DNA of 64,000 nt, taken from positions 4,832,001-4,896,000 of the forward strand of contig OY764216.1 of NCBI GenBank assembly GCA_963668315.1, read 5' to 3'. Position 1 is the stretch's first letter, and every line of letters starts with the position of its first letter. The notes beneath the pieces are model-generated. The model had not been told where the DNA came from and ran no database searches. It saw only the letters and a list, made by a program, of their open reading frames with translations. Below are positions 7,184 through 43,136 of the stretch, piece after piece. Both the position numbers and the translations under genes were made by a program. The stretch comes from Spirochaetia bacterium. GTDB taxonomy: Bacteria > Spirochaetota > Spirochaetia > DSM-2461.

Positions 7184-7256
7184 CGCAGGGTGGAGCAGTT
7201 GGCAGCTCGTCGGGCTCATAACCCGAAGGCCGGAGGTTCGAGTCCTTCCCCTGCTA
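7184..7256 (+). tRNA. tRNA-fMet (CAT), CCA not encoded
   Basis: Cloverleaf; anticodon loop CTCATAA; three G-C pairs at the base of the anticodon stem; 1:72 mismatch; GTTCGAGTC T-arm. Confidence 0.95.
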
Positions 7257-20404: not shown

Positions 20405-20420
20405 AGCGAAAGGAACTCCT

Positions 20421-20795: not shown

Positions 20796-20798
20796 AAT

Positions 20799-22465: not shown

Positions 22466-22466
22466 T

Positions 22467-22757
22467 ATGCTTGTATTGGTAAGTTATGATGTCTCAACAG
22501 AGGCACAAGATGGGAAGAGACGACTGAGACATATTGCAAAAATCTGTGAAGATTACGGCCAACGCGTTCAATATTCCGTTTTCGAATGTCTGGTTGATCC
22601 ATCACAGTGGGCACAACTGAAGCGCAAACTTGAAAAAAAGATTAATCCCAAAACAGATAGTCTCCGCTTTTACAAGCTGGGTTCCAATTGGAAGAATCGT
22701 GTTGAACACATAGGCGCAAAACCCTCATATGACCCGGAGGGATCATTGATTCTTTAA
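22467..22757 (+). CDS. cas2: Cas2
   Basis: LVSYDV, YGQRVQYSVFEC, DSLRFY. Confidence 0.98.
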   Translation: MLVLVSYDVSTEAQDGKRRLRHIAKICEDYGQRVQYSVFECLVDPSQWAQLKRKLEKKINPKTDSLRFYKLGSNWKNRVEHIGAKPSYDPEGSLIL

Positions 22758-22932
22758 TTGCGAACCTTTGATAAGCAGAACTAGCCAAAGCATTCGCACT
22801 ATTTTTATTCTTTTTCTAAAAATAACTTAGTATGTATGATCTTTGAAAAATAAGAGAAGGATTTAGATTCTACCCCGGTTCGCGAAATTGTATACATAAA
22901 TCGTTTGAGATATATTGTTTATTGCAAAAGCA
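22758..22932 (+). promoter_or_regulatory. CRISPR leader
   Basis: AT-rich 175 bp between cas2 and the first repeat, with GCGAACC and GGTTCGC motifs. Confidence 0.8.
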
Positions 22933-25900: not shown

Positions 25901-26940
25901 TCCGAGGAGAGGTCGCTCCCCTCGCGGGGGCGTGGATTGAAACTTGACATAGATGTTGACACAAAATCCTGTGAAAAGTCGCTCCCCTCGCGGGGGCGTG
26001 GATTGAAACAAAGTGGTCACGGTGATATTAAATGTCACCTCAGGTCGCTCCCCTCGCGGGGGCGTGGATTGAAACATCAGCCTGGTTTCGTCGGAAAGAT
26101 TCCAAAACAGTCGCTCCCCTCGCGGGGGCGTGGATTGAAACCTCTTAGCCTAGTGCCTCTTTATCTAGAGCATTGATGTCGCTCCCCTCGCGGGGGCGTG
26201 GATTGAAACTCACTCATCGTCTTATCCTCCATAACTCAACACCGTCGCTCCCCTCGCGGGGGCGTGGATTGAAACAATGGACTGGTTGAAACGGGTAGGG
26301 AAAGGTCTTGTCGCTCCCCTCGCGGGGGCGTGGATTGAAACACGATGCAGACAAAACAGAATATGAAAATTGAGAGTCGCTCCCCTCGCGGGGGCGTGGA
26401 TTGAAACGCTATCGCCTTTCCGTCGAGAGTAAGTGTAACGTGTCGCTCCCCTCGCGGGGGCGTGGATTGAAACGTATCATCTTTTGTCACAACTTTGCTA
26501 GCTAACGTGTCGCTCCCCTCGCGGGGGCGTGGATTGAAACTCTGATAAATACACTTTATCTTGCTATCCTGTAGGTCGCTCCCCTCGCGGGGGCGTGGAT
26601 TGAAACCTCTTAGCCTAGTGCCTCTTTATCTAGAGCATTGATGTCGCTCCCCTCGCGGGGGCGTGGATTGAAACACGATGCAGACAAAACAGAATATGAA
26701 AATTGAGAGTCGCTCCCCTCGCGGGGGCGTGGATTGAAACTATTTGAGATTTTTCCAGAATGGCGTAATTATGAGTCGCTCCCCTCGCGGGGGCGTGGAT
26801 TGAAACTTATTGTGAGAGTTAGAACCGCTCCCGCGCTATGTCGCTCCCCTCGCGGGGGCGTGGATTGAAACAACCGTTGATGTTACTCTGGAAAACGAGT
26901 CCCTGAAAGTCGCTCCCCTCGCGGGGGCGTGGAATGCTTT
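22933..26940 (+). CRISPR. Type I-C array: 61 repeats (GTCGCTCCCCTCGCGGGGGCGTGGATTGAAAC, 32 bp) and 60 spacers of ~33-37 bp
   Basis: Counted by eye; last repeat (26909-26940) degenerate at its 3' end, fixing + orientation. Confidence 0.99.
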
Positions 26941-27178: not shown

Positions 27179-27223
27179 GCTCATAACCCGAAGGCCGGAG
27201 GTTCGAGTCCTTCCCCTGCTAAA
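27179..27223 (+). repeat. att core, copy 2 (tRNA-fMet 3' fragment)
   Basis: Identical to 7214-7258; 5' half of the tRNA absent. Confidence 0.95.
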
Positions 27224-27308
27224 GCATGACAATTCTTTCTGTTAGAAAGAATTAGAAGTAACAACAGGTATAAACTACCGGAAGACCGGCGTTTCTATCA
27301 AAATCCAG

Positions 27309-27329
27309 TGACACCAAGAATGACACCAA
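27309..27329 (+). repeat. Tandem TGACACCAA x2, candidate arm-type sites of integrase 2
   Basis: Same relative position as the 23-bp motif of element 1. Confidence 0.5.
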
Positions 27330-27353
27330 AATCATTCTTGTACAGGAGATGAT

Positions 27354-28676
27354 ATGAACAGCCGGTCTTTTTATTTGTACCGACGGAATCCCAGAGGCCC
27401 TTATTACGTAAAGTTCCGTAATCCCCTGACAGGCGAAATAGGATCATATAAATCCACAGGAGAGTCTGATAGGGATAGAGCGTCTTATATCGCACAGAAA
27501 TGGCTTTATGAGGGAATGCCTGAAGGAAGAACCCAAAAGCCCAAAAATCCCGGTGAGTACTTCACCAAAGAATCTGTTTTCGAGAAATTAAGGAAATTAG
27601 ATCTTACTCCTGAAGACGCCCAAAGAATATTACAGCTCTTGAAAAAAAAGGAGCTCATTACAAATACTAAATTGGGCACAGTTAACACCAACTCACCTCT
27701 ATTTATCTCTTGGCTTCTGGATATGTGGAATCATGAAACAAGCCCCTACATTAAAGAGAAATTAGCCCACGGACATTCTCTTGGTAAACGACGAAGTTAC
27801 GATGCGATTAGATCTATAGAAAAACATTGGGCTCCCTTTTTTGAAGGAGTAAACCGGGATGAACTAACTCGGCACAATCTCAAGGATTTCTCCCTCCACT
27901 TATCAGAAAAGGGTTTGGCAGCTAAAAGCATAAACAATATTCTCTCCCCCGGTACGGTGATTCTCAAATGGGCTGCTCAGAATGATATTATCAAAACCGA
28001 TCCTTCTATTGGTTTACGAAAATTCTCTGGTACAGCACAGAAACGGGGAATACTAACAGATAAGGAAGTGAATACGTTATTTACCGATGGAATATGGAAA
28101 GATCCCAAAGTTCGTCTTGCAAATATCCTTGCCTCCGTATCAGGCTTAAGAAATGGAGAAATTCTTGCTTTACAAGTTCAGGATATTGGAGAAGACCGCA
28201 TCTATGTTAGACATAACTGGTCCATCAAGGACGGATTAAAATCACCGAAGAATGGTCTTTCCCGTGAAGTTCCCATATTCCCTACGTTAAGAAAAGAATT
28301 GCTTAGATGGGCTAGACGCCACCCTGAGGGTATGTCTCCTGAACATTTCCTATTTTATAGCGAAATTACCCCTTCCATCCCACTTAATGGGGGAACACTC
28401 TCTAGACATCTTGTAAGTGCTCTGGAAAGCATAGGAATAAGCGATAAGGATAGAAAAGAAAGAAAAATAGATTTTCATAGTTGGAGGCATCGTTTTGCGA
28501 CTCTTCTGACCCATAAGGTGGGTCAGAATACAGCCCGAGTAACCGGACACCTGGACCAGAAGATGCTAGAACATTACAGCAACCATTCCAGCGAAAAAGA
28601 TTTCCAAGAGATCTACGACGCCAGCGCACAAATTTTCAGTAACACATTTAATATTGTAGAGGAGAATGCCGTATGA
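27354..28676 (+). CDS. Tyrosine recombinase/integrase 2
   Basis: GLRNGE, FHSWRH, VTGH...EHY; collinear with integrase 1 (LKDFSL.LSEKGLAA..INNI). Confidence 0.95.
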   Translation: MNSRSFYLYRRNPRGPYYVKFRNPLTGEIGSYKSTGESDRDRASYIAQKWLYEGMPEGRTQKPKNPGEYFTKESVFEKLRKLDLTPEDAQRILQLLKKKELITNTKLGTVNTNSPLFISWLLDMWNHETSPYIKEKLAHGHSLGKRRSYDAIRSIEKHWAPFFEGVNRDELTRHNLKDFSLHLSEKGLAAKSINNILSPGTVILKWAAQNDIIKTDPSIGLRKFSGTAQKRGILTDKEVNTLFTDGIWKDPKVRLANILASVSGLRNGEILALQVQDIGEDRIYVRHNWSIKDGLKSPKNGLSREVPIFPTLRKELLRWARRHPEGMSPEHFLFYSEITPSIPLNGGTLSRHLVSALESIGISDKDRKERKIDFHSWRHRFATLLTHKVGQNTARVTGHLDQKMLEHYSNHSSEKDFQEIYDASAQIFSNTFNIVEENAV

Positions 28677-29314
28677 GTGGAGAAGTACCCGTAGACTTTG
28701 CCTTTGAAGACAATGCAACACTGGAATCATTGGAAGAAGGAATAAGAGAAATAGGAGATCAGATTAAACTGGGGCATGCTTTCATAGCGGTTGCATTAGG
28801 CAGAGTTAAAAAGGATAAATTATACCTTAAAGTTGCCGTAGACTTTAAAAGATATCTGGAATTAGAAAGACTTGATCTCTCCTATCAAAGAGCAATATAC
28901 CTTGCGGACATCGGAGAAAAATATATCAGGTATAAACCACAACTACAGGCAAACGGTATCAGGCTCTACGAAAATATGAGTAAAATTCGTCTGCTCGAAT
29001 CTGAGATTGTGGAAAATGATCCTGTCTGGTGGAAACGTATGAAGAAAAATTCAGTAAGAGAGCTCAAGGATTTCATTGAAAAACGAAAAAGCAGTATAGA
29101 CGTCTCAACTGAACCGAATGATGACGGAATCATTACCGTAAGCAACTCCAGTCTTTACCTAAATCGGGAGAAAATCCGCGGGATTAACCTGAAAGAGTTC
29201 AAAAAGAATGCCCATAAAGGAAAAAGAGCCGTTGTTATATGGGTCGATGACGACCAAGAGGCTAGAAAAGTGCGAAAAAAGCTAAAAAAAATCCACGGGG
29301 CAGAAACAGACTAA
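28673..29314 (+). CDS. Integrase partner protein (possibly DUF3102/Borrelia PF49-like)
   Basis: ATGA coupling to the integrase; L.RVK.DKLY....DFK.Y...L.LSY..A..L pattern. Confidence 0.75.
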   Translation: MSGEVPVDFAFEDNATLESLEEGIREIGDQIKLGHAFIAVALGRVKKDKLYLKVAVDFKRYLELERLDLSYQRAIYLADIGEKYIRYKPQLQANGIRLYENMSKIRLLESEIVENDPVWWKRMKKNSVRELKDFIEKRKSSIDVSTEPNDDGIITVSNSSLYLNREKIRGINLKEFKKNAHKGKRAVVIWVDDDQEARKVRKKLKKIHGAETD

Positions 29315-29802
29315 CACAACACTACACAATATAAGAAATCTGGTAATAAGAAAAGGAAAGGGGACAGAGGGGATATTGAATCTTCTCTATCTTCCCGAAA
29401 AACATTGATTCGAATAGACCGCTATAATGCGTTTTCCCTCTGTTGCAAACCTTGGAAATTCACTCCGAGTTAATAGATGGGAAGAGCTATAAATAAGCGT
29501 CCTATCCTCTTCGTAAGACAATGGCTATTCCTGTAAAATGACGTATATTTTAATCGCTAGGAAGGACCTTCTGGATAGGGAATCCCACGTGTAAATCGGC
29601 TTGCTTCTATTGAAAAAAGGCAATTTTCTAGGGGCTAAAACAGCCCCCTAAAATGAAGGGTTTGACCCCTAAATTACATTACCGTATTTGCAAATACCTA
29701 GCTCTTGAACAGACGATAGAACAAAGGATCTTTGAAAAAGTTAAGATAACGGTTATTTCAGCTATCCCCCACTGATATCTAGAATATAAAGCAATTCTAA
29801 GA

Positions 29803-29952
29803 TTACATCAAGATCCTGTCCCGGATCAACAAAAAACTACCGCATTGGGGACAGCGTATTTTCCTTGCTTCCTTCCCTCTTAACCGATTCCCGCATTTTA
29901 AGCAAACCTTAGGTTTCGGCTCTTTCGGGTTATACCAGATTCCTTTTTCCAT
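29803..29952 (-). CDS. 49-aa zinc-ribbon protein (not in ORF track)
   Basis: MEKGIWYNPKEPKPKVCLKCGNRLRGKEARKIRCPQCGSFLLIRDRILM; GAGGAGGAG RBS. Confidence 0.7.
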   Translation of the reverse strand: MEKGIWYNPKEPKPKVCLKCGNRLRGKEARKIRCPQCGSFLLIRDRILM

Positions 29953-30024
29953 CGAACTCCTCCTCTGACATTTTATTATCAAGTTTTATAGAAGACCGGG
30001 CCTCCCCCTAGGAGACCCGTAGAT

Positions 30025-30405
30025 TTAATCTTCATAGGGATACATGATAGTTAAAACCGGTTCCCCCTTATCTCCGGGGCCAATTATGGCTTTAACTATA
30101 ATATTCTCAGGATTCCCTTCCGTTTTCATCTGGAACAGAACCTTGATGCGAATCTCGCTCTGCGTTGATTTCCTGGCATAGATATGTAGCATAAAGAGCA
30201 AATCCCAGAGACGTCCCTTAACCGACTGTCCTAGGGCAGCCAACTCCTCCTTCGGAACAACCACACCGTTATAGAACGTATCCGTTATGGCGACAGGTAC
30301 CTTGAAACCTACTTCCCTGGCAAAATCCGTTACATCGACAAGAACACCGTCCTCAATAGCTTGCTTCCTGGTATATGTATAAACGATGTCTGCCTCATCC
30401 CACAT
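30025..30405 (-). CDS. DUF6573-like mobile-element protein
   Basis: YTYTRKQAIEDGVLVDV...GRLWDLL...GPGD.GEPVLTIM.P.ED. Confidence 0.75.
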   Translation of the reverse strand: MWDEADIVYTYTRKQAIEDGVLVDVTDFAREVGFKVPVAITDTFYNGVVVPKEELAALGQSVKGRLWDLLFMLHIYARKSTQSEIRIKVLFQMKTEGNPENIIVKAIIGPGDKGEPVLTIMYPYED

Positions 30406-30742
30406 GATGTTCACCCTTATGTTCATTCCTGAACTCGATATGTTCGGCAACAATAATGACCTTACTATGGTTCATACCATCCTTCTTCCACCGATTCTGC
30501 TTCAAACGGCCTACGACACGTACGCTTCTGCCTTTTTCCAAGTATTTCAGACAGTTTTCCGCTATCCTCCCCCAGCACTCCACATCAAAAAAGGAAACCT
30601 CTTCCTCCTTATCATCGGCTTTTCTGTATATCCGGTTGGAGGCCAGGTTCATTTCGCAAAGTGTTACCTCTCCCTTATGAGTTCGTTCTTCCGGATTCCT
30701 GGTTAACCGGCCTTCTAAAATAATTGAATTGAGTGAATTCAT
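30395..30742 (-). CDS. ssb: Single-stranded DNA-binding protein lacking the acidic tail
   Basis: LNSIILEGRLTRNPE, FFDVECWG..AE.C..YL.KG..V.V.GRL. Confidence 0.92.
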   Translation of the reverse strand: MNSLNSIILEGRLTRNPEERTHKGEVTLCEMNLASNRIYRKADDKEEEVSFFDVECWGRIAENCLKYLEKGRSVRVVGRLKQNRWKKDGMNHSKVIIVAEHIEFRNEHKGEHHVG

Positions 30743-30760
30743 TTCTTTCTCCTTGAATAA

Positions 30761-30795
30761 TAAAAAACCGTATCCCATCGCTGAGATACGGTTGG
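30761..30795 (-). terminator. Intrinsic terminator-like hairpin between gam and ssb
   Basis: AACCGTATC-N-GATACGGTT followed by a T run on the minus strand. Confidence 0.6.
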
Positions 30796-30806
30796 TATGG
30801 CGAAGC

Positions 30807-31343
30807 TCACTTCTCCTTAATTTGAAGCTCCTCTTCACCGATAGTCACATTTACTCCGGGAATTAACTCTCCCTGGCTAAGCAGCTTGTTGATCTCCGAT
30901 TTTGATAGTGATTTCTTAACCTGAACAATCTGGGGCTGGTTCGCCTCGCAAAACTTTATGGCAAGTTCTTCGTCGACCACTTCCACCCGATTGGGTTTCT
31001 TGCGCAAAGTGATGTTGACTCCGGGAGCCTTTACAGTTTTGCCTTTACGCAGCTTGAGAACCTCACGGGAGATGTAAGGTTTGAGCAGTCCCATCATGTA
31101 GCTCATGGTGTTTTCATCCTCCACATTGGCTCTCTCGTACCACAGATCAATCTTTTCCTTGAAACCCTTAGCCTGATCCCATCGTTCAGTCATGCGCTCC
31201 TTGGCCTGTATATACTTCCTGGCGGCCCAGGCAGCTTTTTCCAAGCTGTCGATGACGAATCCTTCTTCTCCCTCCTGGGGAATATCATCAACGAGAACTT
31301 CTGTAATATCCGGATGGATTTCCGCTACTGCAATAGATGACAT
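30807..31343 (-). CDS. Mu Gam-like host-nuclease inhibitor / Gp157-like protein
   Basis: IDSLEKAAWAARK coiled coil, KTVK.P...LRK, K..I.K.L..GE.IPGV. Confidence 0.75.
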   Translation of the reverse strand: MSSIAVAEIHPDITEVLVDDIPQEGEEGFVIDSLEKAAWAARKYIQAKERMTERWDQAKGFKEKIDLWYERANVEDENTMSYMMGLLKPYISREVLKLRKGKTVKAPGVNITLRKKPNRVEVVDEELAIKFCEANQPQIVQVKKSLSKSEINKLLSQGELIPGVNVTIGEEELQIKEK

Positions 31344-31357
31344 GGTTTACCTCCTTC

Positions 31358-32224
31358 TTAGGCTGTTTTGTCGTTTTGGTTCTGATGAATGACCTTTCGA
31401 ACATATCCAAGCATGGTCATAACCTTGTTCTCCCCTGGTTCAGTCTGGATCTGGTTGATCACCCAGTTGAAATGCTTATCTGTGAAACATGCCCTGTGAT
31501 GATCCAGAAGACCAGCCAGTTCCCGGTGAGAATCGGTTATCTGAGGGATGGGACCAAAGAGAAGTTCTTCCGATACCTTGTCACCTTCCCGCTCGGCATA
31601 AACCTCGAAAGGTTCGCTTTTAGCAGGTTTTGATTGATTTCCAGATTTTTCCCTATTTTCTTTGGTTTTCTCCCTCTCGTGACTATCCTCTTCTTGGGGT
31701 AATTCTGCCGAATCATAGGGGATTCCCCCCAGTTCATCGGGGAAACACATACGAAAAGCCTGACTGATGGCTACCTTCCTCAGCTGAAACTTTGGCATTT
31801 TCTTCCAGAACGATGTTATTGTACCGTCATGCTTCTTCTGAACTGCTTCTTCCCAGAAAACCTCGTGCGAAAAGGGATGGTCCCAATCCTTACGATGAAT
31901 TTCCACCACCGCTTTCATAGTTTCTCCCTCCCCTTCCACTGTGGCAGCCCAACCGTCCAATTTCCCCGTCCTTTCGGCTCGTTTCAGGTAGACCTCATAA
32001 CCGACAATGATATTCATATGCCGGAAGGAGCCTGTTCCGTAAACGACGCAGTGGATTTCCCGTTTAAAGGGGTTCAGCTGGTAGATCGTAGCGATTTGTA
32101 TCAGCTGTTCCTTTTCCGGGTTTGTCAGGGAATTCTCCAAGTTGAAAGATTTTAGATATGCCTGGATCAGATCTTGTGTGACGTCTGTAGAAGAGAGAAT
32201 GTCCTGTTGATGTTCCTTATCCAT
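31358..32224 (-). CDS. bet: Bet/RecT single-strand annealing protein
   Basis: LNPFKREIHCV.YG, IIVGYEVYLKRAER, W.KMP..QLRKVAISQAFRMCFPDELGG.PY. Confidence 0.88.
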   Translation of the reverse strand: MDKEHQQDILSSTDVTQDLIQAYLKSFNLENSLTNPEKEQLIQIATIYQLNPFKREIHCVVYGTGSFRHMNIIVGYEVYLKRAERTGKLDGWAATVEGEGETMKAVVEIHRKDWDHPFSHEVFWEEAVQKKHDGTITSFWKKMPKFQLRKVAISQAFRMCFPDELGGIPYDSAELPQEEDSHEREKTKENREKSGNQSKPAKSEPFEVYAEREGDKVSEELLFGPIPQITDSHRELAGLLDHHRACFTDKHFNWVINQIQTEPGENKVMTMLGYVRKVIHQNQNDKTA

Positions 32225-32227
32225 GGA

Positions 32228-32332
32228 TCACCTCCTGTATCTAGGCAGCTGTAGATTTTTTTTGTTGCTGGTGTTGTAAAACAGCAAGTATGCAATCGGG
32301 ATGATTGCGTAAGGGATGATTTTCTTGAGCAT
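32228..32332 (-). CDS. 34-aa hydrophobic/basic peptide (not in ORF track)
   Basis: MLKKIIPYAIIPIAYLLFYNTSNKKNLQLPRYRR; AAGGAGG RBS; stop overlaps the bet RBS. Confidence 0.55.
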   Translation of the reverse strand: MLKKIIPYAIIPIAYLLFYNTSNKKNLQLPRYRR

Positions 32333-32499
32333 ATTTGCCCTCCTTTGTTATTTGTTAGAGGGATAATATATGTTTGAATTCTGGTGTTTTGCGGATTTCC
32401 TTGTCTATTTCGAGCTTGATAGGAAATGTATGGTTTTCAATATAACAGGTGTATACGATAGGATTTTGATGCAATAATCATATCAGAAAAGAAATTTCG

Positions 32500-32584
32500 G
32501 TTAGACATATTTACCACATCAGGTCTATATTAGATATAGTCAGACATTTATATTGAAAACAATAGAATTAATAAGTTATATAGA
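32500..32584 (+). other. attI-like first insertion site (G|TT at 32575/6) with candidate Pc
   Basis: GTTATATAGA is the exact complement of the attC1 left end; no attC hairpin upstream; AGACAT direct repeats; TAGACA-18-TATATT at 32502-32531. Confidence 0.55.
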
Positions 32585-32686
32585 AAACGGGTGCATACAA
32601 ATGGACGTTTTTTTATGAAAAAAATATTAATTTTAATAAGGAATTTCTTTTTTATAAAAGTGTAAATAAGAATTAAAGGTATTAAA

Positions 32687-33616
32687 ATGAGAATCTCATT
32701 CAATCTGAGGAATATTAGCTGGAATACTGTTGGGACTATCTTCAGTATTATTTTTAGTGGTTTAACATTAATTTTCTTAATAAAAAACTCAAATATTGCT
32801 AATTCATCAATTAGAGAAATGCATGATCAGACCATTTTAGCAGAAAAAACAATAGAAGAGATGAAAGCGCAACGGATACAATCACAGAAACCCGTTTTAT
32901 ATTTGTCGTCGGAACACTTTTCTATCTACGAGAAACCAGACTCATATACATTTGGACTTGGTAATATAGATCCAATTGATTTTGATTGGGTTAATGAAAC
33001 AGAAGTAGGAATTATAATTAATCAAAGTATAATTTTTTTACAGAATACGGGAATTGGTCCAGCATATGAGATTGAAATACAATGGGATTTTGACATAGAT
33101 GAAATGATCAAAAACCTCAAGACTTACTCAGAATTTTTAGGCGATGATATAGAATCAAAAAATACATTATTTTTCATTGATGCTTTGGAAACATCTTTAA
33201 AGATACTAGGGACTCAAAACCACAATTATCGATATCCTATAGCCAAAGTAGAAGATGGATTCTATATCGAAATTCCTTGGTTATTCTTCGCTTATTGCAA
33301 TTACATTACTTTTATTGATAGTAATGACCTTAGCTATAGTCATATTGATGAAACATCAAAATTTATTTTGGGAAAGAGAACGGAGTATCTAGAATACTAT
33401 GGACATAAATTAATCTCATTTAATAGCAATCCAGTTAATTTAATGATTAAATATAAAGGTATCAATGGTGAAAGTTATAGTATGAAGAAACAACTTAGAT
33501 TTATGGGATTTGTTCGATTATCACCCCAAGATTATTTAATAGAAAATTTAAAAGACGCAAATGATTGCTTTATAGAAATAATATCGATTGATGAAAAAGA
33601 ACAACAAAAAAGCTAA
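32687..33616 (+). CDS. Cassette 1: hypothetical protein with N-terminal TM helix and coiled coil
   Basis: 309-aa ORF followed by attC1. Confidence 0.75.
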   Translation: MRISFNLRNISWNTVGTIFSIIFSGLTLIFLIKNSNIANSSIREMHDQTILAEKTIEEMKAQRIQSQKPVLYLSSEHFSIYEKPDSYTFGLGNIDPIDFDWVNETEVGIIINQSIIFLQNTGIGPAYEIEIQWDFDIDEMIKNLKTYSEFLGDDIESKNTLFFIDALETSLKILGTQNHNYRYPIAKVEDGFYIEIPWLFFAYCNYITFIDSNDLSYSHIDETSKFILGKRTEYLEYYGHKLISFNSNPVNLMIKYKGINGESYSMKKQLRFMGFVRLSPQDYLIENLKDANDCFIEIISIDEKEQQKS

Positions 33617-33666
33617 TACAGATGAATAAAATAAAAGAGAAACAAGTGATAGTGAAATTTAAATCT

Positions 33667-33764
33667 ATATAACAAAGATTTGCTACGGATTTGCCTATGT
33701 CACAATTATTGCTGTTCGCAATAATTCCGCCAAATACGGCAAACCGCAGAAATCGGCGTTATAC
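33667..33764 (+). repeat. attC1
   Basis: ATATAAC...GTTATAC, 98 bp; GATTT[G]CTACGG/CCGCAGAAATC arms. Confidence 0.9.
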
Positions 33765-33767
33765 CGA

Positions 33768-33796
33768 TTGCAAATTCAAAGAAATAGGAATATACT
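33768..33796 (+). promoter_or_regulatory. Cassette 2 internal sigma70 promoter
   Basis: TTGCAA-17-TATACT. Confidence 0.55.
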
Positions 33797-33829
33797 CCAA
33801 TAATAACATTGAAAATACGGAGTATAGTC

Positions 33830-35038
33830 GTGATAACAAATATAATAGCAACCTATAAAAGACTCATCCAGCACACAAATTATACTCATCACAGATATAT
33901 CTATAAAGAATTTAATATAAATAATAGGCTAACAGGACTAATTGGTCCAAGAGGAACAGGAAAGACAACACTTCTTATTCAATATATTAAAGAGAATTTA
34001 AAAATTGATGATTGTATTTATACGTCATTAGATAATATTTATTTTACGCAAAATAATTTAATCGAATTTGTAAATGAATTATATGATATTTATGGGATCA
34101 GATATTTCTTCTTCGATGAAACACATAAATATCCGAACTGGAATCAAGAATTAAAAAATCTTTATGATTCCTACCCTGACATAAAATTAATCTTTTCTGG
34201 AAGTTCAAGTCTAGATTTAATTAAAGGATCTTATGATTTATCTAGAAGGGGAGTCATATTCAGAATTGGAGGAATGTCTTTTAGAGAATATTTACTCTTC
34301 AATAATATAGCAGATATCCCTTCAATTACATTTCCCGAATTATTAGAGAATAGATCAAGATATGAAAACGAAATAGGATCTATGAAGAAAATATTGGGAT
34401 ATTTTAATGAATATTTAGGAAAAGGATATTATCCATTTATTCTGGAAGATAACCAAAGTTACAGCCAAAAAATCCAAAGAATTATTGAAAAGACGATTTA
34501 TGAAGATATTTCAAATTACTATAAATTGAAAACAGAAAATCTGATAAGTTTTAAAAGAATAATTTCTTATATGGCAACAATTCCACCAGGAGAATTAAAC
34601 AGAAATAACATAGCAAAAAATATAGGATTAGATAATAAGACAATACAGAATTACCTTGATATTCTTCAGGAAACAGGACTGATTCAATTCATATTAAAGA
34701 ATAAAGCAGGAAGCAATATTTTAAAGAAGACAGAAAAAATATTCCTGGATAATACAGATATTTATAGATCCACAAGTGAAGAAATCGGTTTTGAAACACC
34801 AATTGGAACGTTAAGAGAGATATTTTTTATTAAAATGCTGTTGAATTCTGGGAACAAAATCCATTTCAGCGAAATTGGAGATTATCAAATCAATAATATC
34901 AATTTCGAGATTGGTGGTAAGAATAAAGACCTTAAGCAAATAAAAAACAATTTGGAAAACTCATATTTAGTAAAGGATGATATAATTACTGGGAGTAAGT
35001 ATGAAATCCCGTTGTACCTGTTCGGATTTCTGTACTAA
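33830..35038 (+). CDS. Cassette 2: AAA_14/DUF4143-type ATPase
   Basis: GPRGTGKT, FFDETHKY, SGSS, C-terminal D...FEIGGKNK; GTG start after GGAG. Confidence 0.88.
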   Translation: MITNIIATYKRLIQHTNYTHHRYIYKEFNINNRLTGLIGPRGTGKTTLLIQYIKENLKIDDCIYTSLDNIYFTQNNLIEFVNELYDIYGIRYFFFDETHKYPNWNQELKNLYDSYPDIKLIFSGSSSLDLIKGSYDLSRRGVIFRIGGMSFREYLLFNNIADIPSITFPELLENRSRYENEIGSMKKILGYFNEYLGKGYYPFILEDNQSYSQKIQRIIEKTIYEDISNYYKLKTENLISFKRIISYMATIPPGELNRNNIAKNIGLDNKTIQNYLDILQETGLIQFILKNKAGSNILKKTEKIFLDNTDIYRSTSEEIGFETPIGTLREIFFIKMLLNSGNKIHFSEIGDYQINNINFEIGGKNKDLKQIKNNLENSYLVKDDIITGSKYEIPLYLFGFLY

Positions 35039-35051
35039 GAAAAAAGAGACG

Positions 35052-35150
35052 GTATAACAAACATTTGAACTTGATTCGCCTACTGTCATACTTTTTGCAT
35101 TCGCAAAAAACACGCCAGCTGACGGCTCACAAGTTAAATGGGCGTTATAC
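35052..35150 (+). repeat. attC2
   Basis: GTATAAC...GTTATAC, 99 bp; CATTT[G]AACTTG/CAAGTTAAATG arms. Confidence 0.9.
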
Positions 35151-35168
35151 GGATAAAATGTAGTAAAA

Positions 35169-35948
35169 ATGACAAAACATAATGAAGAGATATTAAAAAT
35201 TTGGAATATGGTACTAAATCTCGCTATTCAAATGCTTAATAATGAAGAAGATGCGAAAGATGCCGCACAATCAATATTTGAAATAGTATCAGAGAAAATT
35301 GAAACTTTTAGGAATGAATCAAAGTTAAGTACATGGATATACCGGATTTCATATAATTATCTGATTGATGAAATAAGATATAGAAATAGTGAAAAAATCA
35401 CATTTGAACTTTTTGAAAATGAAATAACACAATTTAAAGAATATGAGAATGAATATAATCTTACCCAAGAAGAAGAAAAAATATATATAGAAGAAATAAA
35501 GATAGGATGTACAAAAGCATTGTTACAATGTTTAAATCCTGAAGATCGCTTTATTTTCATATTAGGAACAATTTTCAATTTTCCGCAAAAAGATGCTTCT
35601 GAAATATGTAATATCTCGTATGATAATTATCGTACCCGGTTATCAAGATCAAGAAATAAAATAAAGAACTTCATGTCAAATAATTGTGGTCTCGTAAATC
35701 CAGATGCAAAGTGTAAATGCAGCAAAAGGATACTAATCGCAAAAGAAAGAGGAAGAATAAATTTTGAGAAATCTTTATACAAAACAAATAGCAATAGGAT
35801 TAATAAATATATTATTGAAATGAATGATATAGATGAAATTTCAAGAATTTATCAGGACAATCCATTCCTCGAAATTAACAATGATGATATCTCCTGTAAA
35901 ATCCAAAATTTGGGAATAGTACAAGAGATATCAACAATAGTTATTTAA
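35169..35948 (+). CDS. Cassette 3: ECF sigma factor with Cys-rich C-terminal extension
   Basis: DAKDAAQ, SKLSTWIYRI, RLSRSR, CGLVNPDAKCKC. Confidence 0.88.
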   Translation: MTKHNEEILKIWNMVLNLAIQMLNNEEDAKDAAQSIFEIVSEKIETFRNESKLSTWIYRISYNYLIDEIRYRNSEKITFELFENEITQFKEYENEYNLTQEEEKIYIEEIKIGCTKALLQCLNPEDRFIFILGTIFNFPQKDASEICNISYDNYRTRLSRSRNKIKNFMSNNCGLVNPDAKCKCSKRILIAKERGRINFEKSLYKTNSNRINKYIIEMNDIDEISRIYQDNPFLEINNDDISCKIQNLGIVQEISTIVI

Positions 35949-36258
35949 TTAAAGTACCAGATGAAAAGCCAATAAGTATTCCTAATATTACTGTTGTAAT
36001 ACAAATTTGAAAGAAAGCAGAATTATCTTGTCTGAAAATAAGAAAAGATAAAGGAATAAAGAAAAGGGAAGTAATGATTAATCCATTCAAAATAGAATTA
36101 TCAACTATTCTGAAAAAAGTATTCACAATCCCAATAATAAGCCACATGGTGAATGCAGAAAGAATAAATAACTTATCAAGCTTTTTAATTAGCATTGGAA
36201 CTATATCTGCCAGTGCTGCTACCAAACCAATAAGAATAGAAATAATCAAATTGTTCAT
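35941..36258 (-). CDS. Cassette 3: small multi-TM membrane protein, convergent with the sigma gene
   Basis: 105 aa, hydrophobic, AGGAG RBS. Confidence 0.75.
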   Translation of the reverse strand: MNNLIISILIGLVAALADIVPMLIKKLDKLFILSAFTMWLIIGIVNTFFRIVDNSILNGLIITSLFFIPLSFLIFRQDNSAFFQICITTVILGILIGFSSGTLIK

Positions 36259-36278
36259 ATAATCTCCTATATCAATAT

Positions 36279-36306
36279 TAGACGTAAAAATTATTAATTT
36301 GTGACA
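36279..36306 (-). promoter_or_regulatory. ECF-type promoter for the membrane protein
   Basis: TGTCACA-N15-CGTCTA on the minus strand just upstream of the RBS. Confidence 0.6.
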
Positions 36307-36365
36307 GAAAAAAAGAAAAAAAATTAAGAAAAAAAGTATGATATAATGAACATTGGCAACGCACC

Positions 36366-36463
36366 GTATAACAATGAATTGGAGCCGAATTGCCTATGTC
36401 ACAATTATTGCTGTTCGCAATAATTCCGCCATGGACGGCAATCAGCTCAATTCGGCGTTATGT
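36366..36463 (+). repeat. attC3
   Basis: GTATAAC...GTTATGT, 98 bp; 42-bp core identical to attC1. Confidence 0.9.
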
Positions 36464-36490
36464 CTACAAAATAAAAGATGAGAGGAATAC

Positions 36491-37684
36491 ATGGAAAAGA
36501 TTAATGTCATTACAGAGATAAAAGAACTTAAAAATCAATTATCCTATTCAAAACGATATGCATTTTTCTTCGGAGCTGGAACATCTTGTGCTCTTGGCGT
36601 TCCAAATATTGCGACTCTCACTTCGTCAGTTGAGGATTTATTAAAGGAAAAAAATAAAGAAAACTTTAAAGTGATTAAACAAGATTTAGAATCTTCTATT
36701 CCAGATAAAACAATAAATATTGAGGATATATTAAATCAAATTAGACAGATTCGTATGATTACGAGAGAAAGAGAAGATAAAAAATATCTTGAAATCACAG
36801 GTAAGAGCGCTAAAGAACTAGATAACTCTATTTGTAAAAGTATCTATGAGATTATATCCCAAAAAGAATCAGATGCCGACTTAACAAATACTAAAAGATT
36901 CTTCGCATGGCTTAGTATGCAAAATAAGAATTATTCGTCAGAAGTATTTACTTCAAACTATGATATGATTATTGAGAAATCCTTAGAGGGTATAAATTAT
37001 CCATATTTTGATGGTTTTGTCGGCGCATATGAACCGTTCTTTTGGCAAGAAAGTATTGATAAATTTGTAGATAATAATGACCTAACAAAAGATTGGATAA
37101 GGTTATGGAAAATTCATGGATCATTAAATTGGTTTTGGAAAGTTAATGACGGAAAAGAACAAATTATACGCGGTAGTAAGATATCTGATATTCGGACACT
37201 TTCTAATGAGCTAGTAATCTATCCATCAAAGGAGAAGTATAATTCCTCAAGAAAACAACCCTTTGTTTCTTATTTTGAGAGACTTAAAAAGGTGCTTACT
37301 AGTGGAGAAGTTTTATTTGTTTTTTCTGGTTATTCATTTTCTGATCAGCATATAAATGATATTGTTTTTGATGCTTTAAGACAAAATAATAGATTACATA
37401 TAGTGGTGTTCTCCTATTTAGATGAAGAAGTAGAAAATTTGTATAAAATTTTATCTTCGTACCTAAATATATCAGTATACGGTCCACAAAAGGCTATCTT
37501 AAGAGGAAATATATATGAATGGAATACACTAGAACAAGATGAAGAATCTATTAAAACAAATTCTATATATTGGGATAATACAAAAAAATCACTCACTATA
37601 GGTGACTTTAATAAATTGGTAGATTTTTTAATTAAATCTTCTGGGAATGTAAAATCCATTGAGGATGAAGTTAATGGAAAATGA
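36491..37684 (+). CDS. Cassette 4: SIR2-like NADase
   Basis: FFFGAGTS, FTSNYD, KIHGSLNW, GYSFSDQHIN. Confidence 0.93.
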   Translation: MEKINVITEIKELKNQLSYSKRYAFFFGAGTSCALGVPNIATLTSSVEDLLKEKNKENFKVIKQDLESSIPDKTINIEDILNQIRQIRMITREREDKKYLEITGKSAKELDNSICKSIYEIISQKESDADLTNTKRFFAWLSMQNKNYSSEVFTSNYDMIIEKSLEGINYPYFDGFVGAYEPFFWQESIDKFVDNNDLTKDWIRLWKIHGSLNWFWKVNDGKEQIIRGSKISDIRTLSNELVIYPSKEKYNSSRKQPFVSYFERLKKVLTSGEVLFVFSGYSFSDQHINDIVFDALRQNNRLHIVVFSYLDEEVENLYKILSSYLNISVYGPQKAILRGNIYEWNTLEQDEESIKTNSIYWDNTKKSLTIGDFNKLVDFLIKSSGNVKSIEDEVNGK

Positions 37685-39458
37685 TATTACATATCTTGGA
37701 AAAGTCATACGAGTTGATTCAAATATTGTAGAAGTTGAAATTTCAGATTTGATTCCTTCTTCAACTCCAGTTATCAATGGCAAGTTGTATAAAATTGGTC
37801 AGATTGGAACTTTCATCAAAATGCCAATAGGTAATATTACAATTTATGGAATTGTTTCATCCGTAAGTAATACACCAACGAAAAATGATGATAATCAATT
37901 AAGGCAGCTAGTTGGATCGCGATATCTGAGTGTACAACTAATAGGTGAAAAAATCGGCGATTCTGATTTTGAGAGGGGAATCGGAACATATCCCACAATA
38001 AATGATGAGGTTCATTTAGTAATTGAAGAGGATCTCGCAAATATTTACGGTAATGATAAAAATGGATCAATTGAAATAGGAACTCATTCATCCTCTGAAA
38101 ATTTAAAAGTGTATGTTGATTTACATAAATTGGTTTTAAGGCATAGTGCTATTTTAGGTTCAACAGGTAGTGGGAAATCAAATACAACTGTTAGTATACT
38201 GAAATCGATACTAAATGATTATGATGGTTCAAGGGTTTTGCTAGTTGATCCACATGGGGAATATGCTTCTGCATTTCCAGATGCCACAGTTTTTAAACTA
38301 AATGATCCAGACTCTCCATTGTATGTACCATTTTGGTTAATGAATTTTGATGAATTAGCCTATTTCTTAGTTGGAGCAAAGCCTACCGATGATCAAAAAC
38401 CAGAATATAGATTATTAAGAGAATGGATTGTTAAGTATAAAAAAGAGCATTGTGAACTTAAAGCTGGAAATGTAAATCCTAATTTTATAACAGCAGATTC
38501 ACCTATTCCATTTAGTGCTAGAAAACTTTGGTATGATATGAATTGGTGGGTAAATGCATCTTTTGAAGAAACGACAAAAGATAAACAAACCGTAGATAAT
38601 GCTTGCATAAAAAAAGATGAAAGCGGGACTGAGCTTGTAGGAAATTATGAAGGGCTAGAACCTGCAATATTTGAATCATATCAAATGGGATCAACTGCAC
38701 CATATAAATCAAAGCATCAGGATTTCTATACGTATGAGAAAAAGATCTTGAATAGACTTAAGGATTCAAGATTTGATTTCATGTTTCATCCAGGAGATTA
38801 TAAAGATGAAAAATCACCGAAAGATTTACACAATTTGCTTAATGAGTGGATTGGCAGTGACAAAAAACTTGCCATATTAGACTTAAGTGGCGTTCCTTTT
38901 GAAGTTTTAGATATTACTATTGGACTTATTACTAGATTTGTTTATGACAGCATGTTTTGGGGAAGAAAGGAATCATATACAGGAAAACAAAGACCAATAT
39001 TGCTCGCCTATGAAGAAGCACATACTTATCTTGGTAAAAATGAAAATATTAGTTATTCACGGAAAGCTGTAGAACGAATTTTTAAAGAGGGAAGAAAATT
39101 TGGGGTAGGTTCATTAGTTATATCCCAAAGACCTTCTGAAATATCTGAAACAATCTTAGCACAGATTGGAACATTTATCTCTTTGCGTCTGACTAATTCA
39201 GCTGATCAATCAATAGTAAAATCGTCATCTCCAGATAATTTAAATAGTTTAATTGATTTATTACCATCATTACGAATTGGTGAAGCCATTATTGTTGGTG
39301 AATCTATAAAAATACCATCAAGAGTTAGAATAGAATTAAATCATCCTAGACCAACAAGTGATGATCCAGATATTGAAAAATGTTGGAAGAAAAAACATGA
39401 ATCTAATGATGATAATTATAAGACTGTTGTTACAAAGATAAGAGAACAAAGAATATAA
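37674..39458 (+). CDS. herA: Cassette 4: HerA-family ATPase
   Basis: N-terminal HAS barrel, HSAILGSTGSGKS, DPHGEY, EEAH, KEGRKFG, SQRPSE. Confidence 0.93.
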   Translation: MENDITYLGKVIRVDSNIVEVEISDLIPSSTPVINGKLYKIGQIGTFIKMPIGNITIYGIVSSVSNTPTKNDDNQLRQLVGSRYLSVQLIGEKIGDSDFERGIGTYPTINDEVHLVIEEDLANIYGNDKNGSIEIGTHSSSENLKVYVDLHKLVLRHSAILGSTGSGKSNTTVSILKSILNDYDGSRVLLVDPHGEYASAFPDATVFKLNDPDSPLYVPFWLMNFDELAYFLVGAKPTDDQKPEYRLLREWIVKYKKEHCELKAGNVNPNFITADSPIPFSARKLWYDMNWWVNASFEETTKDKQTVDNACIKKDESGTELVGNYEGLEPAIFESYQMGSTAPYKSKHQDFYTYEKKILNRLKDSRFDFMFHPGDYKDEKSPKDLHNLLNEWIGSDKKLAILDLSGVPFEVLDITIGLITRFVYDSMFWGRKESYTGKQRPILLAYEEAHTYLGKNENISYSRKAVERIFKEGRKFGVGSLVISQRPSEISETILAQIGTFISLRLTNSADQSIVKSSSPDNLNSLIDLLPSLRIGEAIIVGESIKIPSRVRIELNHPRPTSDDPDIEKCWKKKHESNDDNYKTVVTKIREQRI

Positions 39459-39470
39459 AGGGAGATAACA

Positions 39471-39680
39471 ATGGAAAGAAAGTACATAGAATCATCAATG
39501 ATATCTAGTATAGGATTTGATTTTGCAAGCTCTACCTTAGAAATTGAGTTTCGTGATGGTGCATTATGGCAATATTATGATTTTCCAGAATCAATGTGGT
39601 ATGAATTTGAATCAGCTGAATCCCAAGGAAAATTCTTTCATAGGGAAATAAAAGATCAATACACAGGTTCTCGAGTATAA
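39471..39680 (+). CDS. Cassette 4: KTSC domain protein
   Basis: SSMISSIGFD....LEIEF..G..WQY..FP......F..AES.GKFF...IK. Confidence 0.9.
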   Translation: MERKYIESSMISSIGFDFASSTLEIEFRDGALWQYYDFPESMWYEFESAESQGKFFHREIKDQYTGSRV

Positions 39681-39692
39681 ATAAAAATCGAG

Positions 39693-39790
39693 ACATAACA
39701 ATCAAATGCAACTGTCATGGCAAACTGTCACAAAATCCGCTTACGCATATTTTGCGCCAATTCACCATGCAGCTGATTTGGGCGTTATAT
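39693..39790 (+). repeat. attC4
   Basis: ACATAAC...GTTATAT, 98 bp; CAAAT[G]CAACTG/CAGCTGATTTG arms. Confidence 0.88.
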
Positions 39791-39874
39791 TACAAATGGT
39801 AGAATAAAAAACATCTTTACTTTTATACAGTAAAGGTTAAACTTATTACGTTCATTAAAATAGGGAGAAAGAAA

Positions 39875-40339
39875 ATGAAAAGAATAATTGTTTTACTAAG
39901 TGCTTTATTAGTATTTGCAGGTTGCGCTTCTCAGGTCACCGTGAATGAAGAGGATCGACAATATCAAGAAATCGTTGATTTTCCAGGCAAAAATAAAGAT
40001 GAGATATTTGATCTGATTAGTCAAAGTATGTCCAATGTTTTTGTTAGTGCAGAATCTGTAATCGATTATGAAAATTCTGAAAGTGGAAAAATTATTGGAA
40101 AAGGAGTTGCTGAGATTATCTATACAATAGCTCCTACATATACTCATTATACTTTAACAGTTGAGGTTAAGGATGAAAGAGTTCGATTTAGCTTTACTGA
40201 TATGTATTTCCCTCCATCTGGAGTATTGGGAAGAATGCCTTTAACTAATCAAGGTCAAATAGATTCATTTTCAGAGCATGCTAGAAAATTAGTGAATGAA
40301 ATTACAGAATTCTGTCAAGATAGTAATGATAATTGGTAG
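39875..40339 (+). CDS. Cassette 5: lipoprotein (DUF4468-like)
   Basis: Lipobox FAGC; F.SA.SVI.Y...E.GKIIGKG; no attC follows. Confidence 0.75.
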   Translation: MKRIIVLLSALLVFAGCASQVTVNEEDRQYQEIVDFPGKNKDEIFDLISQSMSNVFVSAESVIDYENSESGKIIGKGVAEIIYTIAPTYTHYTLTVEVKDERVRFSFTDMYFPPSGVLGRMPLTNQGQIDSFSEHARKLVNEITEFCQDSNDNW

Positions 40340-41078
40340 AATATCCTACCTTGAAATAGATAAAGCAACCCTTTTGTCTGTAAAATTAGAAAAAGTTAAT
40401 CAGTCTCCATATTCAAATATCTTTTACCTGTAAACCACTGCTCATCTATTTCCATTAACAGAGCCGCGATCAGACGATCAACGGACTTCCTATTTGGAAA
40501 TATCATGGCTACCCTTGTTCGCCTCTTTATTTCTTTCATCTGCCGCTCTGCCAAATTTGAAGTTCTTAGCCGTCGCCAATGAGCCTTTGGCATTGAGAAG
40601 ACGGTAAGGGACTCGGGGATATTCTCATCCATCCAGCTACTCAGATCGGGCGCCGTTTCCTCATATTTTTTAACAGCCATTGAAAGAAAGCGTTTCGCTT
40701 CTTCTCCATTGGGTGCGTTAAAAATAGTTCTGATGTCTTCTGCTACCTCCTTCTCCATGCTCTTCTTGGGAACGTGATGAGAAGCATTCTGCTGGAGATG
40801 AAACTGACAGCGATGCCAGGGAACCGTAGGAAAAACAGCCTCTATTGCAGATTTTAGACCACTATGGGCATCTGAAGTTATCATTCTGACTCCATGTAAA
40901 CCTCGGTCAACCAATCCAGCGAGGAACTTTCTCCAATGAACATCAGCCTCGCTGAGTTCTGTTGAAATCCCAAGAACCCTTCTCATTCCCTTATTATCAA
41001 CTCCATAAGCAATTAGAACGGCTGCCGAAACGACAGCTCTATCCACACGAGCTTTTTCATAGGTCGCATCCACAATGA

Positions 41079-42425
41079 GATAGTGTCCAGACATGTTCGC
41101 AACTTTCCTTTCAAGAAGCCATCAAAATTCCCCATCAGGCAGCCTGACCTAATTTAATTCTTTGTTCATCTATCGATTTTTCACTGATATACCGTTTTCC
41201 CGAAGCCCAGTCTTCTGAGTATTCAATCAGGTAACAACAGACTAGTCTAAGGTAGGAGTCAATACTGGGAAAGATTCCCACAACACGAGATCGTCTACGG
41301 ATTTCCCGATTCAATCGTTCCAGTTGATTGGTAGAAGCAGTTTTCCGGCTGTCTATTTCTGAGAATTCATAATACTGAAGAGAGTCTTCTAATCCGTCTT
41401 CAAGACAAGTCATGGACTTCGGAAATTGTTCTTCAAATTCCTCTATAATTCGGTATGCATATTCACGGGCCGATTGGGAGTTCGGTTGATTCCAAATCTG
41501 CTTAATTCTGCCGGCAACAGCTTCTTTATCCCTGGCAGGAAGATGGGACAGGATGTTCCTCATAAAATGAATTTTACAGCGTTGCCAGGAGCAACCGATG
41601 AGTTCCTTTCTTATGGCGGCTTGAAGTCCCAGATGGGCATCAGAGACACAGAGCCAGGCATTTTTAAATCCTCTTGCTTTAAGAGACCTGAACAGTTCGG
41701 TATAAGTGCTTTCTGATTCTTCCTGCATTGGTTCAACAGCAAGGATTTCTTTGAATCCTTGTGAATTAACACCAGATACAACCATCACAGCCATATTTCT
41801 CACTCTTCCGTTATACCGGATCTTTTCATAGAGGGCATCAACCCAGATGACAGGATATTCTGAATCAAGAGATCGATAGCGGAATTCATCTACCTGTTCA
41901 TCAAGTCCCTTATTGATTTCAGAGACCTGGCTGGCTGAAATATTTTCAATGCCCAGACTCATAGCCAATTTCTCAATCTTTCTGGTTGAAACACCGTTGA
42001 TAAATGCTTCCTGGACAACCTGAATCAGAGCTTGCTCGGATCTCTTCTTTTCTGTTACAAAGAAGGGAATATATCCGCCTTTTCTGAGCTTGGGGACAAG
42101 GAGATACAGTGTTCCAAGACGAGTATCAAATCGGCGTGGTCGATATCCAGAAAAATGGGTGGATCTTCCCATAGAATGAGACCCCTTTTGAGCTCCTACT
42201 TTATTCGCCGCTTCTATTTCCATAAGCTTTTCCAGTAGCCATTGCAATAAGCTGAAAATGGGATCCGGCTCCGATATGAATTGGAGTAGCATTTTTTCCA
42301 GATTCCCATTATCATTTTCCTTAGCCATCGTTTTTCTCCTTGTGGTTTTAGTAGTGCATTACCATTCTGGAGAATTCGATGGCTTCTTTCAATAATTAAA
42401 ATTGCGAACTTGATTGTACGCTATC
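41079..42425 (-). mobile_element. IS256-family element (inner), 1347 bp, intact
   Basis: 24-bp IRs (19/24 match); 8-bp TSD CACAATGA at 41071-41078 and 42426-42433. Confidence 0.95.
41135..42328 (-). CDS. IS256 transposase
   Basis: WVDALYEK, SDAH.GL, QRCKIHF.RN, STNQLERLN.EIRRR. Confidence 0.95.
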   Translation of the reverse strand: MAKENDNGNLEKMLLQFISEPDPIFSLLQWLLEKLMEIEAANKVGAQKGSHSMGRSTHFSGYRPRRFDTRLGTLYLLVPKLRKGGYIPFFVTEKKRSEQALIQVVQEAFINGVSTRKIEKLAMSLGIENISASQVSEINKGLDEQVDEFRYRSLDSEYPVIWVDALYEKIRYNGRVRNMAVMVVSGVNSQGFKEILAVEPMQEESESTYTELFRSLKARGFKNAWLCVSDAHLGLQAAIRKELIGCSWQRCKIHFMRNILSHLPARDKEAVAGRIKQIWNQPNSQSAREYAYRIIEEFEEQFPKSMTCLEDGLEDSLQYYEFSEIDSRKTASTNQLERLNREIRRRSRVVGIFPSIDSYLRLVCCYLIEYSEDWASGKRYISEKSIDEQRIKLGQAA

Positions 42426-43136
42426 CACAATGAGATAGCGAAAAGCTCCCAGAGGGCGATTCCGCCACTTAGAAATCTCTTCATCCAGCAGTGCGGTTGC
42501 TTCAGAAACCTGGGATTGGGAAACTTCGAAGCCGCAGAGCTGTTCTACAATTTTGGTTACTCTGCGAGTTGATACCCCCTGGATATACATCTGAGCTATT
42601 GCCATTTTCAACGCCCTTTCGCTGCGGCACCCTTTTTCAATGCTGCCAGGATAGAATTCCATCCCACGGACCTGCGGAATCTCGATAGGGATCTCACCTA
42701 CACGAGTTCGAATCTTCCTGCTTTTGTACCCGTTTCTATGGCCAATGCGATCGTCATTCCGTTCATAATGACTGGCTTGGATTGCCTTCTCTTGCTCTAA
42801 CCGCATAGATAAATTCATTATTGAACTTATGACCTTTGTTAATCCTTCTCGATTATCTGCCTGGAGCTCTTCAATCATTTGATCGAAAACGGTATAGTAA
42901 TCCTCGTTAGTCATGATGCCTTCTTTTGTTTTTGGTCGAACTAATCGAAGACTGATTGGCTAACTTTTTCAAGCCCCCTTTATTTCTAATTTACAGACAC
43001 TATTGTACACTATCCGAAGGTTAAGGCATTGCTGGAGAGAGAGTAGTGTAATCATACAGGTCCGATAGGGGGATCTGGAATGATGTTTGAGTGCACTTTT
43101 TAAGATGGAGTTGTTTTTTATTTACGGGTTCTCATG

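Follow-up and report, generated by a model that had tools for sequence, protein, structure and literature searches.

How does an integron array fill with cassettes on a genomic island that has no integron integrase? The question is raised by a 64,000-nucleotide stretch of a Spirochaetia genome (contig OY764216.1, positions 4,832,001 to 4,896,000; hereafter the window, whose own numbering is used below), in which five gene cassettes follow a crossover at position 32575 on a tRNA-integrated element. A first-pass annotation, made from the sequence alone, had read the locus as a cassette array with an attI-like entry site but no IntI, and had proposed that a host IntI loads it in trans. We compared the window with its host genome (G000; 5.62 Mb in one contig, C1) and with related genomes of the same family (other G numbers). 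All cis parts of an integron are present in the window save an established promoter, and we favor, at a probability of about 0.65, the reading that the locus is a satellite integron platform: a copy of attI with five cassettes and no intI, which a chromosomal IntI would have filled in trans, either in the present host or in an earlier host of the same genus.

The array begins at an attI homolog

The entry point comprises the following features.

32548..32581, + strand: attI homolog, with the crossover between G32575 and T32576
32433..32445, − strand: inverted copy of a 13-bp motif of putative role, about 140 bp before the crossover; the motif also lies at −27 in attI
32502..32531, + strand: candidate cassette promoter, 10/12 match to consensus, within chance

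As first annotated, the crossover at 32575 lies outside any attC. As attI references we used the regions upstream of intI in related genomes, with crossovers placed by cassette complementarity where this was possible (9 nt in 5 of the 12 regions; the others gave weaker matches or none at all); in G000, a 9-nt complement to the first attC sets the attI crossover at G3135521. Of the 27 bases that precede G32575, 21 agree with the intI-adjacent attI of the congener G003, which is rank 1 of the 139,394 GTT sites in G000 (the next best has 18). They match the host's own attI at 18 of 27, a level reached by three G000 sites, that attI included. A second G003 site, at the end of a 9-kb contig that has no intI, is 95% identical to the window site over 40 bp. 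A gapped profile from 15 relatives' sites, with G000 and the G003 attI left out, placed the window site at rank 91 and the host's true attI at rank 121. With weight matrices (10 to 12 sites), the rank of the window site varied from 5 to 1,533 with the training set and the background; when the congeners were removed, the host's true attI likewise dropped, to rank 169 to 238. The attI pattern had no match in viral contigs and matched only the two G003 sites in genome contigs, and of 37 other family genomes, 2 matched the attI-like module of the window, one only marginally. It is through homology and register to intI-adjacent attI sites that, by sequence comparison, the crossover at 32575 is placed in an attI homolog at the head of the array.

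The 13-bp motif lies in the window at 32433-32445 and 32548-32560 and is also found in G001 and G003. It flanks intI too in G000 and G003, and the position of the inverted copy falls near the start of the attI modules that head intI-less arrays in several relatives. Among 38 copies listed that lie outside open reading frames (ORFs), the window copy alone has GTT at the attI spacing, as judged by eye; more widely, GTT was noted at this distance after the motif at attI-like sites only. Across G000 the motif is often seen in short hairpins, 37-bp tandem arrays, and divergent pairs (e.g., C1:252886-253033, 1933274-1933397, and 4041436-4041584). The AGACAT direct repeats that had been pointed out upstream of 32575 were dropped as a signal: the 6-mer is present there twice and about 1,900 times in the whole genome, which is chance level.

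Could IntI instead have inserted a cassette at a chance GTT beside a host regulator motif, the likeness to attI being incidental? IntI is reported to insert cassettes at GWT sites across the genome (attG sites; Loot et al., 10.1101/2022.09.11.507474), the 13-bp motif is dispersed, and in G000 there are indeed solo cassettes, and one array, headed by something other than attI. The free crossovers of the latter (C1:2134303, 2957912, and 4646855), which behave like attG insertions, match attI at 8 to 14 of 27 positions, against 21 of 27 and the first rank for the window site; moreover, two independent attI references choose the same base in register, and the layout is repeated in six genomes. We regard a chance insertion as very improbable and already largely refuted. 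Neither solo cassette of G000 (C1:2134303-2135532 and 2957912-2959091) sits at an attI; after the first comes GAT and not GTT, which fits the expectation for a natural attG insertion. The crossover at C1:4646855, the first one of a second tRNA-Met element (see below), was considered as an attI because it looked like one by eye, and was rejected at rank 5,977 to 7,091.

Four attC sites delimit discrete cassettes

Downstream of the entry site, the array has the following content.

32576..33758, + strand: cassette 1, with a 309-aa ORF of no known family (32687-33616) and attC1 (33667-33764)
33759..35144, + strand: cassette 2, with an AAA_14 and DUF4143 ATPase (33809-35038; Pfam; PADLOC PDC-S01, E 1.6e-29) and attC2 (35052-35150)
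35145..36457, + strand: cassette 3, with an extracytoplasmic function (ECF) sigma factor (35169-35948), an antisense 105-aa ORF, and attC3 (36366-36463)
36458..39784, + strand: cassette 4, 3.3 kb, with Sir2 (36491-37684), HerA (37659-39458), KTSC (39471-39680), and attC4 (39693-39790)
39785..40358, + strand: cassette 5, truncated, with a DUF4468 lipoprotein (39875-40339); attC gone

The four attC hairpins of 98 to 99 bp proved to lie and to fold as annotated. Computed with DNA parameters, the bottom strands reach −17.6 to −23.2 kcal/mol, in each case a more stable fold than that of the top strand, and all four form single hairpins with z scores of −4.3 to −7.7 against mononucleotide shuffles. 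All eight 9- to 10-mers of the cassette starts and attC left ends were found in place. Each start matches the complement of its own attC left end over 9 to 10 nt and those of the other three attC over 5 to 7 nt. A lone match of this kind is weak (P of about 0.06 for the first one in 1.46 kb), and the complementarity therefore counts as evidence because of its diagonal pattern and not because of any single match. From its start at G39784 the fifth cassette runs to an insertion sequence (IS) of the IS256 family (40359), where its own attC was lost.

An iterated profile found 38 members of this attC family in 10 clusters in G000; it was used instead of a strict de novo hairpin scan, which returned 4 attC-family sites among 15 genome-wide matches. 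When 32 of the 38 genomic copies are aligned, compensatory changes are seen at 16 of the 22 consensus pairs. The covariance model used below was built from sequences of this attC family itself and is not the model of IntegronFinder. In relatives, arrays adjacent to intI are headed by attC of this family too. With four sites that have R boxes and a bottom-strand hairpin, where at least two are called for, and with no intI nearby, the array is a CALIN (an attC cluster that lacks an integron-integrase).

Three cassettes recur as units outside the window: a homolog of cassette 2 (86%) is itself a cassette in G001, cassette 3 is found as a discrete unit (35141-36459) in another organism at 99% identity (run X5), and cassette 4 is found as a discrete unit (36454-39703) in a marine metagenome at 96% identity (run X6). 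Anti-phage cargo, which the first-pass annotation had named as possible for integron cassettes in general, was located in cassette 4. Sir2 and HerA are adjacent there and match PADLOC models at E 3e-125 and 6e-159, respectively, while the matches of NCBIfam anti-phage models to the proteins of this cassette fall under their cutoffs. The usual motifs of both proteins can be read, and we take their roles to be those generally assigned to Sir2 and HerA. Cassette 4 is thus a predicted Sir2-HerA anti-phage system.

The only integron integrase of the host is encoded elsewhere

No match to TIGR02249, and no intI or remnant in an IntI-profile search, was found in the window, so that it holds a CALIN and not a complete integron with intI beside the array. 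A genome-wide search for intI, such as the first-pass annotation had called for, returned one intact IntI in G000, above the TIGR02249 cutoff (360.9 bits versus 265), as an open 411-aa frame at C1:3134145-3135380. It lies 1.73 Mb from the window and heads an array of the same attC family. An attI-like head is absent from the remaining 8 of the 10 attC clusters in G000. In the window array, attC2 is 95.7% identical to an attC of the main array, and attC3 is 94.7% identical to one in another host array. A second tRNA-Met element of G000 (L106; C1:4639229-4649123, minus strand) has a cassette with an OLD-like nuclease and a 4.9-kb, four-gene cassette (SMODS, E2-E1, JAB, and SAVED) resembling a cyclic oligonucleotide-based anti-phage signaling system (CBASS).

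Most sampled arrays without intI begin at attI in related genomes

By the covariance model, 28 of 38 family genomes have attC (264 matches, of which 150 were listed). We sampled 20 clusters from these 150, favoring well-assembled genomes, and added 2 loci; the sample is thus nonrandom, and kin are not independent. Two of the 22 loci, with IntI or a partial IntI-like match, were set aside. Fourteen of the 20 intI-less loci begin at a copy of their own genome's attI (hereafter orphan attI): one each in G006, G010, and G012, three in G022, and four each in G007 and G020. One intI with several attI is a layout seen in six related genomes, with up to four orphan sites per genome. The other six loci comprise one weaker candidate (G001), three that begin at half an attC behind a phage-type integrase, and two with an unsettled start. 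Whole-genome counts gave five attI in G020, three in G010 (none in either with a reversed-pattern control), and four in G022, with one IntI each; an attI pattern derived from genus g5 fitted just G020 of five genomes. The best match was the own genome's attI for 14 of 17 orphan sites.

These orphans bear on the possibility that the window array is the relic of a complete mobile integron, whose intI once stood between RecT and attI and was deleted, so that we would be looking at decay and not at a kept platform. Loss of intI is a recognized route to CALINs (PMC4889954), G000 is IS-rich, and five orphans share homology with the region beside intI for 136 to 178 bp upstream (20 to 50 bp or no BLAST match in the others), so that these modules resemble the intI-attI intergenic region. 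However, no IntI remnant was found in the window or within 4 kb upstream in any of the 12 orphans tested, independent clean losses would be required at up to four loci per genome, and orphans continue to take cassettes. We therefore think decay improbable as an account of the window, although loss of intI could yet be how platforms first arise.

The genes upstream of the orphans are chiefly ordinary chromosomal or housekeeping genes (uxaC cluster, adhE, aminotransferases, and amylase). An orphan attI follows the uxaC cluster in both G012 and G007, and adhE in both G020 and G022, and the cassettes differ within each pair (L124/L125 and L130/L135); this recurrence suggests shared hotspots or inheritance. 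At the three loci that begin at half an attC (L123:7011 in G012, L084:12836 in G007, and about L083:10380 in G025), a phage-type integrase with 27 to 29% identity to that of the window lies directly upstream; such elements may integrate into attC sites. In G012 (L119:1280-2635, minus strand), an unrelated membrane-protein-like gene lies between intI and attI, which are 1.35 kb apart. We weighed, and do not claim, that intI was excised between flanking motifs: the motif is present at the intI stop in G000 and G003 and is not clear in the other genomes inspected.

Cassettes may be loaded in trans

Traffic between loci is indicated in G006. There the first cassette behind the orphan attI has a copy inside the intI array, with 100% identity across the 1,536 bp from one crossover to the next, which supports loading in trans. 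The first cassettes of two G007 orphans match main-array cassettes at 94.5% over 421 bp and 99.4% over 627 bp. Long stretches are common to orphan and main arrays in 6 of the 11 orphan arrays compared, and 5 have none; several of these stretches start inside cassettes and are probably IS copies. In G006, a short cassette of about 399 bp is found in many copies in the main as well as the orphan array (L116 and L138).

Cassette excision by IntI proceeds through attC × attC recombination, and insertion through attI × attC recombination at G|TT (PMC4889954). On our reading, the chromosomal IntI would excise cassettes as circles by the former reaction, and the circles would enter the window at G32575|T by the latter, the newest cassette coming first; a promoter upstream of 32575 would drive the first cassettes. 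The island could so acquire defense cargo such as Sir2-HerA without an integron integrase of its own. Loading may have taken place in the present host or in a congeneric earlier one, and later IS256 copies would have removed the end of the array and the right att of the island.

Several observations weigh against this reading. The window array has no cassette gene in common with the other arrays of G000, and no alternative first cassette or excision joint at 32575 was seen in seven sequencing runs (four with the same organism code; contigs drop rare variants). The window site is among the 3 of 17 orphans that are best matched by another genome's attI, and the G003 attI that it resembles was assigned from its position beside intI, its first cassette running past the contig end. 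Under the weight matrix with an AT-rich background and no congeners, the window site ranks only 1,533 and the host attI 238. Part of the attI likeness is contributed by the 13-bp motif, which is dispersed and intergenic, with 27 exact-core copies in G000. Lastly, the promoter proposed upstream of 32575 did not stand out: the scan gave 5 sites versus 3.1 ± 1.8 expected, the best at 10/12, which is within chance. Of the proposal that the host IntI loads the array, the presence of an intact IntI with the same attC family thus stands, while the absence of shared cassette genes and of variants at 32575, and the closer likeness to a congener's attI, count against the present host.

The absence of shared cassette genes and of variation at 32575 also speaks for another reading, in which attI and array were loaded in an earlier host and arrived as one block, the site being no longer used by the present IntI. 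For this reading it also counts that the window site is nearer to the G003 attI and to the second G003 site than to the host's (21/27 and 95% over 40 bp versus 18/27), and that the right end of the island is lost. Against such a frozen passenger stand the identities of attC2 and attC3 to host attC and the intact core spacing of the site; furthermore, relatives' orphans that match their own attI at just 19 to 21 of 27 positions also head arrays, and that of G006 (20/27) recently took a cassette. We consider a frozen passenger unlikely, if less so than decay of a complete integron, and retain a platform filled in trans as the preferred account.

Relation to known integron systems

CALINs, attG insertion, and defense cassettes are already known, as is, in the accessible literature, one attI-headed CALIN (PMC9892861). 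The origins listed for CALINs are insertion at secondary sites, loss of intI, rearrangement, and an unknown route, in a study that was unable to look for attI in most integrons (Cury et al. 2016, PMC4889954). The window array resembles the CALINs of that study in having at least two attC, no nearby intI, and an IntI elsewhere in the genome; it differs in that it retains attI, as do most intI-less arrays examined in this family. In the CALIN of Shewanella prophage M16-3 (Qi et al. 2023, PMC9892861), attI likewise heads an intI-less array on an integrated mobile element, but there an intI integron lies in the same 40-kb prophage, whereas here the sole IntI is 1.73 Mb away and extra attI recur on chromosomes, up to four per genome. 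Insertions at attG and single attC sites lacking integron-integrase (SALINs) also have IntI in trans placing cassettes away from intI; attG shares only a GWT consensus and is unlike attI, whereas the window site matches attI over 27 bp and so is not of this class (10.1101/2022.09.11.507474). Xanthomonas has one intI locus with CALINs at a few recurring places on the chromosome, said to be mobilizable in trans; the accessible text mentions no attI at them, and the architecture could be the same (10.1101/2025.06.18.660453). Defense genes as cassettes have been described, with stress on small systems and, as far as the main text goes, without Sir2 (10.1101/2024.07.02.601686), whereas cassette 4 has three genes in 3.3 kb and the CBASS-like cassette of G000 measures 4.9 kb.

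Treponema integrons have been treated as having one attI each (PMC3607928). We found no published description of several attI platforms per genome in a search that mostly covered openly accessible text, where supplementary CALIN tables could list attI. The window is an attI-headed CALIN inside a tRNA island and one case of a family-wide architecture of one intI and several attI. Tentatively, and at slightly less than even odds, this architecture can be read as a distributed integron, in which one IntI would serve several maintained attI platforms, modules of about 140 bp that would spread to new chromosomal sites and integrative elements. If so, many CALINs would be live, expressed capture sites, and islands could gather defense cassettes with attI alone.

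The origin and activity of CALINs are an open question (PMC4889954), one reason being that most genomes do not allow a search for attI. When the own intI-adjacent attI was used as the probe, most intI-less arrays examined in this family started at attI, and a recent cassette copy gave a sign of use. The same simple scan makes the question directly testable in any taxon. Loading in trans would also be a route by which integrated elements gain defense systems without an integron integrase of their own.

The island that carries the array

The array lies in the second of two tandem islands, with the following features.

7184..7256, + strand: tRNA-Met (ARAGORN), target of the tandem islands
27179..27223, + strand: 45-bp copy of the tRNA-Met 3' half (100% over 45 bp), which serves element 1 as right att and element 2 as left att; G003 has a homologous element 1 end
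27354..28676, + strand: phage-type tyrosine integrase of element 2 (PF00589 and PF13102), not IntI (only 7.5 bits on the IntI profile and no TIGR02249 match)
28673..29314, + strand: 213-aa ORF after the integrase, without Pfam or NCBIfam match
30025..32224, − strand: DUF6573, SSB, Mu Gam-like, and RecT genes (Pfam), divergent from the array
40359..43014, − strand: nested IS256-family copies, outer ends without matching target duplication; attC5 and the right att of the element are gone

Element 2 was described as tRNA integrated, and a left att followed by a tyrosine integrase was indeed found, with the array placed between this att and the first host gene. No right att was detected, as no tRNA 3' match of at least 12 nt lies downstream of the array. 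In G003, a tRNA 3' copy lies 6 kb before a 76% ortholog of the kinase at 43137, which places the window array inside the island, the right end of which was probably lost by deletion at the nested IS256 copies. Contigs from three sequencing runs on the same sample, which is probably the one that was assembled here, span 27194-33720 without differences, and this speaks against misassembly.

An attI-like landing pad on element 2, as the first-pass annotation had it, is present in this copy; that it is a conserved part of this RecT element family is not supported by the sequences compared. None of 31 RecT-related metagenome loci had an attC match (17 have at least 1.5 kb upstream; the profile is limited to the family, and many contigs are short), the other RecT-Gam-SSB element of G000 has no top-ranked attI site, and the integrase of element 2 has no relative in viral contigs.

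Element 1 (13716-26930) encodes a WYL regulator and Cas3 and has a CRISPR array in which 60 exact repeats flank 55 distinct spacers; the spacers gave two weak partial matches elsewhere, none in element 2, and there was no clear self-target. At C1:4587512-4587941 in G000, two tRNA-Met 3' copies are found with a host flank like that after the G003 att and an IS256-cut integrase start that is 81% like that of the window; this is possibly the displaced right end of the window island.

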